From: Thermomicrobiales bacterium
GTDB lineage: Bacteria > Chloroflexota > Chloroflexia > Thermomicrobiales > JALYUS01
DNA: 40,006 nt
Assembly (NCBI GenBank): GCA_038230615.1
Contig: JBBRMX010000003.1
Location: 1 to 40,006, forward strand
Direction: 5' to 3'
A model generated the notes under the pieces. The model was not told the DNA's origin. It searched no databases and worked only from the letters and a program-made list of their open reading frames with translations. Each line of letters opens with the position of its first letter. Position 1 is the first letter of the stretch. Of this stretch, positions 33,729-40,006 are shown piece by piece. The translations under genes and the position numbers were made by a program.

Positions 33729-34249
33729 CACGCCGCCCCGCCGAGCGCGACAAGCAACCGCGCCGCGCCGCCATGCACGACCGCGAGGAGTTGCCGTTCC
33801 TCTTCGCCCGCATCGGTCAGTGTGATTTCGAGATACGACGGCGGCACGAAACCACCTGCCATCGCCCGCTCCGGCCACTCGACCACCGCCGCCCACTCGC
33901 CGCCGAAGTAATCGTCTAGTCCTAGCGAGTTCACATCGCCGCCCTCGCCGAGGCGGTAGAGGTCAATATGCACGAGCGATACGCGCTCCCCCGCGCCATT
34001 CATGCCCGCGTATTCGTTGGCGAGCGTGAAAGTCGGGGAAGGGATCGGGCCACGGATGCCAAGTCCCGCCGCTACACCGCGTGCAAAATGCGATTTCCCC
34101 GCGCCGAGATCGCCCCGTATCAGCACGACATCGCCTGCTCGCAGCACGCGCCCGACTGCCCCGCCGAGCGCGACGGTTTCCGCAGGGGCGAGCGTCCGCA
34201 AGGCGACGGTTGCGGCGTTGGGATGGGATGCGGCGGCAGTTCGTTCCAT
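33728..34249 (-). CDS. tsaE: t6A synthesis ATPase TsaE
   Basis: GDLGAGKS, SPTFTL, HIDLYRL and VEW motifs. Confidence 0.95.
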   Translation of the reverse strand: MERTAAASHPNAATVALRTLAPAETVALGGAVGRVLRAGDVVLIRGDLGAGKSHFARGVAAGLGIRGPIPSPTFTLANEYAGMNGAGERVSLVHIDLYRLGEGGDVNSLGLDDYFGGEWAAVVEWPERAMAGGFVPPSYLEITLTDAGEEERQLLAVVHGGAARLLVALGGAA

Positions 34250-34310
34250 AGAAGGGATGATACCATGTATACGGTATACCAACGACCGACGCCGCACGAA
34301 CGGGGTTATT

Positions 34311-35657
34311 GTGGACGCATCACCCGATCTCGACGCACTCTGGCACCGGCTGCTACCGGAACAACAGGACGTGCTGCGCCAAATCACGACATACACCGCG
34401 CAGCACGGCGGCGCTGCCTACCTTGTCGGCGGTCCCGTCCGCGATTTGTTGCTAGGCGCGGTGAAGATCAACGACATTGATGTGATGACCACGGTGGATG
34501 CCCGCACGGTAGCAAAGATGTTCCCGAAGACGGCATTCAAGCAGGAGACCGTTTTCGGCACCGCAACGATTCTCATAGATGTGGATACCACTGCACGCGC
34601 ACGCGGGTCTGTTGATCTTGCAACCGCACGCACCGAGACCTACGCGCACCCCGGCGCACTGCCCGTCGCATACTTCCCCGTCGCGGCGGAAGATGATCTG
34701 CGGCGGCGCGATTTCACGATCAATGCGATGGCACTGTCGCTCGTGCCGGACGGCTTCGGCGCATTGCTCGACCCGTATGGCGGGTTGCACGATCTGCAAA
34801 CCGGCATTGTGCGCGTCTTGCACGAACAGAGTTTTGCAGACGACCCGACGCGGCTTTTCCGAGCGATCCGGTACGCAACGCGCTATGGCTTCGCGCTCCC
34901 TTTAGAGACGGAACAACTGTTTGCGGACGCCATGAAAGCAAATGCGATACAAACGATCTCACTGAAGCGGCGGGCGCACGAAATCGAACTCGCACTGACG
35001 GAACCGAACCCTACGGAACCGAACCCTGTTGCATGTCTCGCTGCATTCGACGAACGTGGTTTGCTTTCCGCAGTCTCCCCTGTACTCACGTGGGATTACT
35101 GGATTGCGTCACGTATCGTTGCGTTGGTGGGTAGCGATGTCTCTTTGTTTGGTGACGTGATGTATGCGCTGTTCGTTTGCCGTCAGGACGAGACGGCAAT
35201 GTCACGGCTATTCGCAGACATACCGCTCTCCAACCCGCAGCACGATCGGATCAAAGCCCTCGTTGCGCTGTATCACGCACAGGCGGCAATCACGCCGGAG
35301 ACGCCGCTCTCCGCACTTGCGCCCTTGCTACAGCATGGGAAGGTAGCAGAACGTACGGTCTCCGCGTTCGTGGACGAACCTGCACGCTGGCGTATCGCGG
35401 ACTATTTTGCGCGAAAGAACGAACTGGGTATTCGCAAAGCATTGGGCGACTGGATCGGCGGGGCATACCTGCAAGCAATCGGTCTGGCACCGGGGAAAAT
35501 CTTCCGCGAGATTCTCGGCGCACTGGACGATGCACGGCTCAATGGGTTCGTGAATAGTGCGAAAGAAGAAAAACTTTGGGTACAGCAGTATCTCCGTGAG
35601 CATGGCATTTCCCCCGGCAGTGCGGGCGAAACGGTTGGTGTCAGCAATGGACTGTAG
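34311..35657 (+). CDS. cca: Class II tRNA nucleotidyltransferase (CCA- or A-adding)
   Basis: VGGPVRDLLLG, DIDV, RTETY.HPGALP, DLRRRDFTINAMA and DDPTRLFRAIRY motifs; start uncertain. Confidence 0.88.
   Translation: MDASPDLDALWHRLLPEQQDVLRQITTYTAQHGGAAYLVGGPVRDLLLGAVKINDIDVMTTVDARTVAKMFPKTAFKQETVFGTATILIDVDTTARARGSVDLATARTETYAHPGALPVAYFPVAAEDDLRRRDFTINAMALSLVPDGFGALLDPYGGLHDLQTGIVRVLHEQSFADDPTRLFRAIRYATRYGFALPLETEQLFADAMKANAIQTISLKRRAHEIELALTEPNPTEPNPVACLAAFDERGLLSAVSPVLTWDYWIASRIVALVGSDVSLFGDVMYALFVCRQDETAMSRLFADIPLSNPQHDRIKALVALYHAQAAITPETPLSALAPLLQHGKVAERTVSAFVDEPARWRIADYFARKNELGIRKALGDWIGGAYLQAIGLAPGKIFREILGALDDARLNGFVNSAKEEKLWVQQYLREHGISPGSAGETVGVSNGL
34998..35027 (+). repeat. Perfect 15-bp tandem duplication (TEPNP x2)
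   Basis: ACGGAACCGAACCCT twice, in frame. Confidence 0.9.
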
Positions 35658-37361: not shown

Positions 37362-38414
37362 TCAGGTGTTGTCGCCCATGAGCCAGTCTTCGCGGGGATG
37401 GGGCAGGGCAGAATGTGCGTATACTTCGGGCTTGAGGGCGCACAAGAAGGGCAGGTTGCGGTACTGTTCACGGTAATCCAGCCCGTAGCCGATCATGAAT
37501 TCGTTCGGACACGCAAACCCGACGTACTCCAGCGGCACATCTACCAGTCGCTTCTCATGCTTATCGAGCAGCGTCACGACGGCGATGCTGGCGGGACGGC
37601 GGGCGCAGAGATGCTGGAGGATGTATGCCAGCGACATGCCCGTATTGACGACATCTTCCACGAGCAGCACATGTTTGCCGGTGATGTTGTCGTCGAGGTC
37701 CTTGAGGATTTGCACCGCACCCGGTTGACGCCCCTGCCCGCGCACCGGCACGCCATACCCCGCGACCGCGAGGTAATCAATTGCCAGCGGGCGCGTAATC
37801 GCCCGTGCGAGGTCCGCGAGGAAGAAGGTAACGCCCTTCAGTACCCCGACGAGCAGAATCGAGCGATCCGCGTAATCCGCTGAGATGCGGCCGCCGAGTT
37901 CGATGACGCGCTCTTGCAGTTCGGCGGGGCTGGCGAAGATATGCGCGATATCTTCCTGCCGCAATTCGGTGATTTCTAATGCACCGTAGCCATATTGCGC
38001 CAGCAATTGCTGGTAGTCTTTGCGGTAGAGCAACCGTACGGCGATTTCGGGATATATCTCACGCAGGAGACGCAGTTTGCGATTTTTCTTCGTCACGAGG
38101 CTCTGCTTCATCGTCGTCAGTTCGACATACACATCCTGATCGGGCAAGTAGAAGTCGGGCGTGAACATTTCTGCGACTTCGTTGCCATCGTTCCACGCGA
38201 TGGCGAACGAAGTTGGCTCATAGAGCCACGGGATACGGTAGAAATCGAGTAGCGCGGCGAACTCCGCCTCCGACGGGTGTGCGAAGGGCGCGGGCGTCTG
38301 CCACCCCGTCAGGACAGTATCGGCGGCGTCTGTTGCGGAGAGCGGTGCGCCGGGCGGCACATCGTCCGGTTCCCTATCGTCTGCCTGCACCGGATATACG
38401 CGCCGTTGCACCAC
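37362..38414 (-). CDS. hpt: Hypoxanthine phosphoribosyltransferase-like domain fused to an N-terminal PD-(D/E)xK-like domain
   Basis: C-terminal: VGVLKG..FLADL.R, VLLVEDVVNTG, LLDK, F.IGYGLDY..YRNLP. N-terminal: SEAEF..WLYEP..FTPDFYLP..YVELTT. Confidence 0.88.
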   Translation of the reverse strand: MVQRRVYPVQADDREPDDVPPGAPLSATDAADTVLTGWQTPAPFAHPSEAEFAALLDFYRIPWLYEPTSFAIAWNDGNEVAEMFTPDFYLPDQDVYVELTTMKQSLVTKKNRKLRLLREIYPEIAVRLLYRKDYQQLLAQYGYGALEITELRQEDIAHIFASPAELQERVIELGGRISADYADRSILLVGVLKGVTFFLADLARAITRPLAIDYLAVAGYGVPVRGQGRQPGAVQILKDLDDNITGKHVLLVEDVVNTGMSLAYILQHLCARRPASIAVVTLLDKHEKRLVDVPLEYVGFACPNEFMIGYGLDYREQYRNLPFLCALKPEVYAHSALPHPREDWLMGDNT

Positions 38415-38457: not shown

Positions 38458-40006
38458 TTAGATCGTCGGCGGGGCAGGCAAGGTCGCCGCGACCACGCCG
38501 TCCGCTGTGACGCAGAGCATCACGCCCCGCGCCTCGTCCACGCTGATGCCCTGTATCGCCACGAATTGTGGCATTCCCTCCTGTGGTCGCAGAATTTGCA
38601 CGACTTTGCCGTCGCTCTTGCGAACACGTAGGATGCGCCCCTGCCCATTCTCCGCCCCATACAGATACGGGCTGCCTGCAGGTGCGGCGAGCGCGGCAGG
38701 CGATGCGAGTTGCGGTACGAGCGCGGGGGTGACGAGCGGCGTCGGTAATCCACCGGCCGTAAAGCCACGCACCCGCCCGTCACCGAGCAGAATATAGATC
38801 GCCTGCCCGTCCGAGCCGATATCTACAGCCGTGCGGAGTTCGGCGGTGAGGGCTTCGGAGGTCCATGGCTTCGCACCCGCCGCATCCTTGAGCGGCACAC
38901 GGATGATCTGCCCGACACTCGCATCGAGCAGATAGAGGGCGTCGCCGAGGATCGTAAGCGCGGTGGGGCGTTTCTCACCCCCCGCCGTCGGTGCCTCGAT
39001 CCATGCGCCGGTAGGGGGGCGGGCGAAAATGCGCGTGCGGTCGGTTGTGATCGCCCCACCGATGTAGAGCAAGCCGCGCAAATCGCCCGCAGGCACCTTG
39101 CTTGCGACGCTGCCGACGGCGAACAACGGCGACCGCTTACCGCTCGAATCGAGGGCATAGACCGTCCACTCGCCCTTCTCGTTGCGGTCGTACAGATAGA
39201 CTTGCCCGTCGTCACCCGCCACAACGAGGCGGCGATTTGCAGGCGTGGCGTCGTAGTGCGCGAGGGTCGTTACCCCACGGGTCGTTACCCGCGTCACGCC
39301 GCCCACGGCATCGAGGGCCTGCGTTTGCAGCCGCCGTTCCTCCGCGAGCCGTTGCGGTTGCCGCCCGGTCGTCTCGACTTGCACTAACCGACTATTCAGT
39401 GCGAGGAGTGCCGCGTAGGTAGCAGGCGATGCACCGGACGCCAGCACGCGCTGTCGCTCGGCAGCGACCGCATCGAGGTCGTGCTTGGCGATTTCGTCCG
39501 CCTGATGCCCGTTGATTGCATTTGCCAGCCCCAGAAACGCCGCCAGCACGAGCGTGAACGCCACCGCGCCGATGAGCATCCAGAGCCGTGTTGGCAACTG
39601 CGGCATTTGCAACGACCGCCTCCCCCGAACCGCTGACATCCCGAACCGGCGCGGCGCGGGCGTACCGAGATACTCCCATACGGGTTCTTCGTCGGGATCG
39701 CCATCGGGATCGTCGCGGGTTTCCCATTCATCGTGCGGGTATGCGATAGACGGGCGGCGGGCGGGTGGAGGTTCGTGTTCCCACGGCGGAGCGGGTTCGT
39801 TAGTATCGTCACCATCGCCGTCATCGTCGTTGTATCCATAATAGCGGTCGTATGCACGGGTGGGTTCGGCAGCGGCATAATGCGGGTCTGACTGCATCTC
39901 GCCTGTCGTCAGGACGACTCCATACGATTGGGGCAACCGGTATCGCCGCCCTAACATAAGCAGATACTCTGCCGCTGCGGTCGGGTCGAGCGCACGCAGC
40001 GGCGCA
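38458..40006 (-). CDS. Single-pass membrane protein with probable C-terminal beta-propeller, partial (start beyond window end)
   Basis: Frame stays open to the window edge; acidic/Pro linker, one TM helix, repeated blade-like motifs (LYLLD..GQI, IYILL.DG.V, LYGAE..GRI). Confidence 0.75.
   Translation of the reverse strand, partial: APLRALDPTAAAEYLLMLGRRYRLPQSYGVVLTTGEMQSDPHYAAAEPTRAYDRYYGYNDDDGDGDDTNEPAPPWEHEPPPARRPSIAYPHDEWETRDDPDGDPDEEPVWEYLGTPAPRRFGMSAVRGRRSLQMPQLPTRLWMLIGAVAFTLVLAAFLGLANAINGHQADEIAKHDLDAVAAERQRVLASGASPATYAALLALNSRLVQVETTGRQPQRLAEERRLQTQALDAVGGVTRVTTRGVTTLAHYDATPANRRLVVAGDDGQVYLYDRNEKGEWTVYALDSSGKRSPLFAVGSVASKVPAGDLRGLLYIGGAITTDRTRIFARPPTGAWIEAPTAGGEKRPTALTILGDALYLLDASVGQIIRVPLKDAAGAKPWTSEALTAELRTAVDIGSDGQAIYILLGDGRVRGFTAGGLPTPLVTPALVPQLASPAALAAPAGSPYLYGAENGQGRILRVRKSDGKVVQILRPQEGMPQFVAIQGISVDEARGVMLCVTADGVVAATLPAPPTI

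Follow-up and report, generated by a model that had tools for sequence, protein, structure and literature searches.

A T7-endonuclease-I-like domain lacking its catalytic lysine, paired with a hypoxanthine phosphoribosyltransferase paralogue in Chloroflexota

Why would a purine salvage enzyme be joined to a nuclease-fold domain, and is a copy whose catalytic residues have been replaced still an enzyme? These questions are raised by a gene in a 40,006-nucleotide stretch of Thermomicrobiales bacterium DNA (assembly GCA_038230615.1, contig JBBRMX010000003.1, positions 1 to 40,006), the whole of which is referred to here as the window. The gene occupies 37362..38414 on the minus strand, on which all the features of its product described below also lie, and comprises 350 codons from a GTG start at 38414, with a G-rich Shine-Dalgarno-like run immediately upstream, to a stop codon at 37362-37364. 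Hypoxanthine phosphoribosyltransferase (HPRT or Hpt, encoded by hpt) is familiar from textbooks for its role in salvage and is also an established target of guanosine penta- and tetraphosphate, (p)ppGpp. The first-pass annotation, made from the sequence alone, had read the window protein as a nuclease-fold domain fused to an HPRT with altered catalytic residues, possibly an effector that senses purines or phosphoribosyl pyrophosphate (PRPP), and its interpretation is partly supported by the analyses reported here. The reading frame is real, and the motifs on which that interpretation was built (HPSEAEF, FTPDFYLP, YVELTT followed by MKQSLVTKKNRK, LLVEDVVNTG and AVAGYG) are all present in the translation. 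The protein is a two-domain, cytoplasmic member of a Chloroflexota-wide family that pairs a lysine-less T7-endonuclease-I-like domain with a dedicated HPRT paralogue.

The two halves of the fused protein

The N-terminal domain (N-domain; residues 44-140, 37995..38285) has a PD-(D/E)xK fold closest to that of T7 endonuclease I, as profile, fold and structure searches all indicate, and the identities of both halves of the protein are well supported. As a single sequence the N-domain scored 16.1 bits against Pfam Phage_endo_I (PF05367), below the gathering score of 29.1, and matched the T7 endonuclease I chain 3cae in the PDB with an E-value of 0.0022; P0129, a stand-alone relative, carries a precomputed PF05367 match. 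When a profile built from 18 N-domain relatives (alignment A2) was searched against the PDB, the four matches were all T7 endonuclease I chains (best E 9.7e-5), and in PHROGs the N-domain matched an endonuclease family (E 1.3e-7) and a Holliday junction resolvase family (E 1.3e-6). The AlphaFold model of residues 40-150 has a mean predicted local distance difference test (pLDDT) score of 86.6. Foldseek ranked T7 endonuclease I in the top four places (probability 0.89-0.98), followed by other PD-(D/E)xK nucleases, with a root-mean-square deviation of 21-27 Å and a TM-score of 0.40 for the superposition on T7 endonuclease I. In a structural search independent of Foldseek (VIA-align) the top six by Z, which reached 7.8, included Bax1, VRR-NUC and the homing endonuclease I-Bth0305I, while Vsr (Z 6.1) and Hjc (Z 4.9) ranked lower; all the Z values are middling, and PD-(D/E)xK nuclease-fold proteins make up the majority of the top rows. 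The ESM Atlas returned only unannotated clusters of ~110 residues and one Phage_endo_I cluster at 0.91. The fold assignment made at first pass is thus borne out by Foldseek, VIA-align and the PDB profile search alike.

In the HMMER alignment E49 (38268-38270), D87 (38154-38156), E98 (38121-38123) and T100 (38115-38117) correspond to E20, D55, E65 and K67 of T7 endonuclease I, and the earlier placement of a Thr at the position of the catalytic Lys was therefore correct. The three acidic residues are invariant in alignments A1 and A2. Thr occupies the Lys position in every row of both alignments and at all 76 loci of the genome survey described below, and the basic helix that the domain has in common with T7 endonuclease I (K110, K113 and R115) is conserved. 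The junction-bound T7 structure 2pfj has Ala at the position of Lys67, and we take it to be the inactive K67A mutant. Proteins from Dehalococcoides and Thermomicrobium have already been placed in the T7 endonuclease I family (table row 54 of PMC3424549); the word 'phosphoribosyl' is absent from the main text of that paper, whose supplements may list domain architectures. Our literature searches found no paper describing the fusion of the nuclease-like domain to HPRT.

A linker, YGYGALEITELRQED (residues 141-155, 37950..37994; mean pLDDT 58 over residues 141-150), leads into the HPRT-type phosphoribosyltransferase domain (residues 156-333, 37416..37949). This domain scored 168.6 bits against TIGR01203, the HGPRTase (hypoxanthine-guanine phosphoribosyltransferase) family, for which the cut-off is 150 (170.7 bits in the genome search), and matched Pfam PF00156 with an E-value of 1e-18; its best match among solved HPRTs was 1r3u (E 2e-51, residues 153-332). 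The PyrR models matched the window protein only at E-values of 8.4e-6 to 0.018, far under their cut-offs, and judged by its sequence the domain is a true member of the HPRT clade and not of the PurR or PyrR type.

Two elements of the catalytic machinery have been altered. In loop III, which reads EDVVNTG, Asn257 (37644-37646) replaces the general-base Asp (Asp137 of the human enzyme), and at the start of the flexible loop II AGYG (residues 218-221, 37752-37763) replaces SSYG, breaking the Ser-Tyr dyad by the change of Ser to Gly while Tyr220 is kept; the loop is four residues longer in this region than in 1r3u. By contrast, all the contacts to PRPP, Mg-pyrophosphate and the 6-oxopurine are kept. 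The acidic pair of the PRPP loop III and the 5'-phosphate loop are present (E253, D254, T258, G259 and S261), and 6-oxopurine recognition is retained through K285, M307 (a backbone contact) and D313, the counterparts of human Lys165, the Val187 backbone and Asp193. The GMP contacts of the human enzyme (Table 2 of PMC2228302) include one from Asp137 OD2 to the purine N7. For Bacillus anthracis Hpt-1, the text consulted of PMC6783271 gives as ppGpp contacts the side chains of Glu99 and Asp100, Lys131, Arg165 and Ile101/Phe152/Leu158, with Asp103-Thr107 contacting the ligand through the backbone only. On alignment to solved HPRTs, all of these contact residues are retained in the window protein, and the Asp equivalent to Asn257 is one that provides a backbone contact only.

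Both the N-terminal leader (residues 1-40, 38295..38414), which is variable and gap-rich in A1 and predicted to be disordered (pLDDT below 50), and the C-terminal tail (residues 334-350, 37365..37415; variable in A1, pLDDT below 50 at 337-350) are unconserved. A complex prediction for the N-domain (A2) with the HPRT part (A1, residues 151-340) gave scores of 0.01 and 0.00 and makes no call either way.

An old hpt partner and an Asn-type clade

Of 8000 candidates scored in a database search with the protein, 5799 reached E <= 0.001. The top 120 are 268-411 residues long and cover 75-100% of the query; Thermomicrobiales, Thermomicrobium, Nitrolancea and Chloroflexia appear among the source names of the matches, and databases label such proteins plainly as hypoxanthine phosphoribosyltransferase. 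With a threshold of E <= 1e-30 the N-domain profile matched 463 representatives of 50%-identity clusters, a number that rose to 3486 at E <= 0.001, and stand-alone N-domain genes were found on long contigs. In a sample of 301 Chloroflexota genomes, five of which (G145, G038, G227, G173 and G272) count only in the denominators of the tallies, an N-domain match was present in 84 and was strong (E below 1e-35) in 76. The domain is single-copy in 75 of these 76 genomes, G211 having a second, partial match ~1 kb away, and in three families it is present in 15/15, 15/15 and 7/9 genomes.

The 76 genomes display four arrangements. The N-domain is fused to an HPRT domain with Asn at the base position in 10 and to one with Asp in 20, is encoded by a separate gene directly upstream of hpt in 34, and stands alone in 12, two of the last (G070 and G079) being at contig ends where hpt ends another contig. 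It is thus fused or adjacent to hpt in 64/76 genomes and, when co-occurrence is included, accompanies hpt in a quarter of the Chloroflexota genomes sampled. Among the Asp-type fusions, 16/20 have ~170-240 in-frame residues upstream of the N-domain, and in all four of those scanned against Pfam this extension is a GAF domain. A cytidylate-kinase-like domain (Cytidylate_kin2) is fused to the N-domain in 5 of the 12 proteins scanned, and in G234 a cytidylate-kinase-like gene lies upstream in a three-gene row with the N-domain and hpt. That row (L038, 5107-7335 of G234:C26, minus strand: cytidylate-kinase-like, N-domain, hpt) is adjoined by a second, divergent hpt, and three hpt copies in this genome exceed the cut-off. 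Separately, the 441-residue metagenome protein P0379 carries a C-terminal DUF1697 domain (PF08002, E 3.8e-34) after an N-domain and a partial HPRT domain, and represents either an additional fusion partner or genes merged in calling. Weak matches to the first half of the N-domain profile (E 2.9e-10 to 5e-4) also lay inside open frames of 913-2180 residues in eight genomes, G112 (G112:C19:57264-57542), G060, G246, G286, G161, G206, G047 and G179; these may be distant relatives of the N-domain in large proteins.

Comparison of the aligned loop II and base-position residues revealed a graded pattern. Free hpt copies have SSYG in most rows with Asp as the base, and adjacent copies likewise have Asp and SSYG, with a few instances of SSYS or ASYS. 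In GAF-fused proteins loop II is mostly S-Y-Y-G/S, and in the fusions of family f34 it is T-K-Y, again with Asp. In the Asn-type proteins loop II is rewritten or shortened, reading RRYA, QRFA, SR-- or, in the window, AGYG; the loop is very variable in relatives of the window protein and largely deleted in family f2. The base position is Asn in 46/46 sequences of the Asn-type clade and Asp in 51/51 other fused, 16/16 adjacent and 41/41 free hpt sequences. Whether the two changes track with the fusion had been raised at first pass: loss of the loop-II Ser does go with fusion, whereas the Asp-to-Asn change does not, 20/30 fusions having kept Asp, and tracking of the latter was therefore rejected in favour of Asn as the mark of a subset.

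A maximum-likelihood tree was built from 82 HPRT domains. Its 25 fused rows all fall into a single clade (support 96/94), within which 10/10 Asn-type rows form one clade (98/95) that is sister to the Asp-type fusions of f34 (98/85). The fused and adjacent rows group, with the lower support of 93/80, with five 'free' hpt copies, and these come precisely from genomes in which the N-domain is alone (G007, G077, G185, G020 and G211). The N-domain therefore seems to accompany a single hpt lineage, irrespective of whether the two are fused, adjacent or unlinked. Of 590 relatives in named genomes, the best 80 include 39 of the Asn-type, with the labels Thermomicrobiales, Chloroflexia, Thermomicrobium, Dormibacteria-type and Limnocylindrales in addition to a few oddly labelled bins, and 39 of the Asp-type, labelled mainly Dehalococcoidia and SAR202.

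A census of 46 distinct Asn-type sequences showed that N257, K193, G194, D254, T258, G259, D313 and R319 are kept in 46/46 and E253 in 45/46; T/S at 261, K/R at 285 and F/Y at 306 are likewise present in 46/46. The loop-Ser position is Arg in 39/46, and the next residue is Tyr or Phe in 35/46. According to the text consulted of PMC6783271, the residues kept across the census are those by which B. anthracis Hpt-1 binds ppGpp and PRPP. Between the order of the window genome and family f26, the mean identity of the Asn-type HPRT domain is 60.2% (21 pairs) and that of the N-domain 59.5%, compared with 44.8% for the free hpt of the same genomes, although the f26 free copies form a separate clade in the tree and are perhaps not strict orthologues. 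The Asn-type HPRT domain is thus not decaying and appears to be under purifying selection. In one f26 genome a fourth hpt-like copy (L097, G065:C46:12300-13020), with T-D in place of E-D in loop III, a loop without S-Y and a score of 151 bits, just above the cut-off, is another degenerate hpt paralogue.

If the fused gene has lost catalytic residues, is salvage provided elsewhere? The window genome has on another contig a higher-scoring hpt (201 bits), a second, canonical copy of the SSYG and Asp type that had been sought as a check on the first-pass reading. It encodes a 184-residue protein with AVSSYG and EDIVDSG, and lies between tilS and ftsH in a tilS-hpt-ftsH row, which makes the fused gene a divergent paralogue rather than the housekeeping copy. 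In two f2 genomes the canonical hpt (G171:C1:298812-299303 and G239:C5:145665-146156) lies inside frames of 704 and 675 residues, which suggests a TilS-Hpt fusion in place of the separate tilS and hpt genes of the window genome. When matches over the HGPRTase cut-off were counted in the 76 genomes, another hpt was present in 10/10 Asn-type genomes and in 18/20 genomes with Asp-type fusions; the remaining two, G204 and G114, have the fused copy only. Among the 34 adjacent-type genomes, 28 (14 from family f16 and 14 from f39) have no hpt other than the canonical neighbour of the N-domain. The starting point of the partnership was therefore a working Hpt of the essential type, and the Asn-type arose where a second hpt copy could take over salvage. 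The suggestion of an isolated new system is accordingly not borne out, the N-domain being an old, phylum-wide partner of hpt.

Gene neighbourhoods, compared at 20 loci, contained no operon partner common across lineages. Dehalococcoidia-type loci follow thrS-infC-rplT, or nrdR and ribonucleotide reductase; a convergent Fpg/Nei glycosylase gene adjoins the fused gene in two f2 genomes; in G291 and G077 PRPP synthetase is next to or close by the lone N-domain gene, which in G020 is near formate-tetrahydrofolate ligase and a purine-nucleoside-phosphorylase-family (PNP) gene. A divergent rsmG (GidB) adjoins the N-domain-hpt pair at one f16 locus (L025, G022) and one f39 locus (L028, G178). The minus-strand gene at 38458-39957 of the window, which precedes the fused gene by 44 bases, encodes a 499-residue protein that is rich in Asp towards its N-terminus and matches no Pfam family; it is kept only in the two closest relatives (L132 and L133, 51-52% identity), and the other neighbour, an NlpC/P60-SH3 protein, recurs in L132 only. 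Further away, a 551-residue open reading frame (34002-35657, plus strand) has a PolyA_pol head domain (CCA-adding or poly(A) polymerase type) from residue 139, and its long Pro/Ala/Arg-rich N-terminus suggests that the listed start is too far upstream. A search for sequencing data that contain this DNA listed two DNA data sets, both from a single study, and none of RNA. A search of PADLOC-DB 2.0 matched the window protein only to PDC-S69 (E 1.6e-4, 19.5 bits, over the PD-(D/E)xK core), and a GAF-fused relative had no match; membership in a known defence system was rejected on this lone weak match. Overall, the fused gene is of housekeeping type, is inherited vertically and belongs to a family repeatedly linked to nucleotide metabolism; it is not a mobile or defence element.

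Sensor, enzyme or nuclease

Because the N-domain has no catalytic Lys, the HPRT domain has lost its general base and loop Ser while keeping its ligand contacts, and a canonical hpt is encoded elsewhere, it is reasonable to view the window protein as a sensor rather than an enzyme. In our favoured reading, to which we assign a probability of about 0.4, the HPRT module binds ligands but is impaired in catalysis and is coupled to a domain that binds or cuts nucleic acid, and the whole protein would act in purine homeostasis. The HPRT half would mainly bind PRPP, IMP/GMP (inosine and guanosine monophosphate) or (p)ppGpp with little or no turnover, and would pass its ligand state to the N-domain. 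The latter would bind metal through its acidic triad and, with the help of the basic helix, bind or slowly cut structured DNA or RNA. The protein could in this way link purine status to a nucleic-acid event, tuning purine and nucleotide homeostasis in the manner of Bacillus PurR or PyrR. More tentatively, the whole family might be an undescribed purine-homeostasis device of the Chloroflexota, in which Hpt serves as a 'trigger enzyme' for its lysine-less nuclease-like partner and the Asn-type Hpt half has become a pure sensor of PRPP, GMP or (p)ppGpp; such a device would be an independently invented PurR-like regulator or a ligand-gated, structure-specific nuclease.

Several points weigh against the sensor. 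Asn is a mild change, the human D137N HGPRT keeping part of its activity, and catalysis depends on the conserved D313, R319 and E-D pair no less than binding does. As the N-domain is the partner of a sole canonical hpt in most adjacent-type genomes, its job needs no dead enzyme, and its role began alongside an active one. The invariance of the acidic triad suggests catalysis rather than mere binding, and the variability of loop II, with its extensive deletion in f2, could reflect a change of oligomer instead of sensing. Around the Asn-type genes, no target, operator or operon partner proved to be conserved.

The strongest competitor, which we consider possible but doubtful, is that the protein retains purine phosphoribosyltransferase activity, at a lower rate or with an altered substrate preference, the N-domain being an accessory for oligomerization, localization or regulation. 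A score over the HGPRTase cut-off (168.6 and 170.7 against 150 bits) and the retention of all substrate and metal contacts fit such an enzyme, as do the sole canonical partners with SSYG and Asp in 28/34 adjacent-type genomes, the Asp-type G204 and G114, where the fused hpt is the only copy, and the reduced activity that human Asp-to-Asn HGPRT mutants keep. Against this, Asn holds the general-base position throughout the clade (46/46), the loop Ser is gone and the loop shortened or rewritten in most Asn-type members, and another hpt has been kept in every Asn-type genome (10/10).

It is unlikely, though less so than the proposals that follow, that the N-domain is a metal-dependent phosphodiesterase or another small-molecule enzyme of nucleotide salvage, so that the fusion would be a metabolic two-enzyme protein. 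An invariant acidic triad with the Lys absent family-wide (76/76 loci and all rows of A1 and A2) would suit such an activity, and the partners of the N-domain are repeatedly nucleotide enzymes: HPRT, Cytidylate_kin2, Prs, the PNP-family gene and, in one locus, ribonucleotide reductase. However, its structural and sequence relatives are all nucleases acting on DNA or RNA, its K110, K113 and R115 conserve the basic helix of the T7 endonuclease I type, and we know of no small-molecule activity in this fold family.

The homology to T7 endonuclease I and to phage resolvase families raises the idea of a recombination or repair nuclease, a resolvase of Holliday junctions or other branched DNA, for which the HPRT domain is a mere scaffold, and the convergent Fpg/Nei gene of the two f2 genomes points in the same direction. 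This is very unlikely: every member seen has Thr at the Lys67 position, where the junction-bound 2pfj, an inactive mutant, has Ala; the gene contexts are those of nucleotide metabolism or housekeeping, not recombination; and the HPRT ligand site is strongly constrained. An anti-phage or toxin-type effector, its nuclease unleashed when purine nucleotides or PRPP shift during infection, would recall the many defence effectors that join a nuclease fold to a nucleotide sensor and could draw on the weak PDC-S69 match to a PADLOC PD-(D/E)xK candidate, but this reading of the first-pass 'effector' can hardly be entertained for a single-copy domain that follows taxonomy (15/15, 15/15 and 7/9 in three families), whose HPRT tree groups follow lineages, which lies among housekeeping genes such as thrS-infC-rplT, rsmG and ABC transporters, and which matches no known defence family at a meaningful score.

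A conserved but unstudied nuclease-fold partner of Hpt would add a layer of purine control in a large and poorly studied phylum. New here are the recognition of the Asn-type as a monophyletic clade, the finding that it is redundant with a canonical hpt, and the graded way in which catalytic features are lost within the fused lineage. The clade amounts to a natural experiment in which catalysis has apparently been given up while the ligand pocket is kept and the N-domain is unchanged, making it the cleanest entry point to the role of the partnership and, if the sensor reading holds, a fresh example of an enzyme becoming a sensor. Since cultured relatives exist, as the names Thermomicrobium and Nitrolancea among the matches indicate, the sensor idea is testable.

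Comparison with known systems

Of the characterized proteins, T7 endonuclease I (PF05367; 1m0d, 2pfj and 3cae) is the nearest to the N-domain, being the sole PDB family matched by its profile and the source of the top Foldseek matches, and the E, PD and E of its active site and the basic helix that follows align with those of the N-domain. It differs in having Lys67 where all N-domain members have Thr, and the window protein falls below the Pfam gathering score. Unlike the phage gene, the N-domain gene is chromosomal, single-copy and tied to hpt, and the monomer model of the window N-domain is predicted to be compact, whereas T7 endonuclease I is a domain-swapped dimer.

The HPRT half has the fold and family membership, over the curated cut-off, of canonical bacterial Hpt (TIGR01203; 1r3u, 2geb and 6d9q-6d9s), with which it has in common the K-G of loop I, the E-D of loop III, the T-G of the phosphate loop, Lys285, Phe306, Asp313 and Arg319. 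In contrast to canonical Hpt, it has Asn in place of the general-base Asp and a longer, AGYG-type loop II, is encoded by a second copy beside a canonical hpt, and is preceded by a 155-residue N-terminal extension carrying the nuclease-like domain. An analogue is human PRTFDC1, whose structure (2jbh) was among the sequence matches (E 5e-18); it is an HPRT paralogue that lacks the catalytic Asp and has very low activity. Like the fused gene, PRTFDC1 is a paralogue beside a canonical HPRT; unlike the fused protein, it is eukaryotic and single-domain, and represents an independent event.

The Dehalococcoidia proteins composed of GAF, endonuclease-like and Hpt domains have the same endonuclease-like domain and an HPRT from the same fused clade as the window protein. 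They have an extra GAF domain, the catalytic Asp and a SYYG-type loop, while the window protein has no GAF domain, Asn and a rewritten loop. Bacillus PurR and PyrR, finally, are likewise instances of a phosphoribosyltransferase fold re-used for ligand sensing and nucleic-acid binding, and according to the text consulted of PMC8789054 PurR binds (p)ppGpp in addition to PRPP. In the window protein, for which sensing is only inferred, the nucleic-acid module would be a PD-(D/E)xK domain, compared with the winged helix on the Bacillus side of this comparison.

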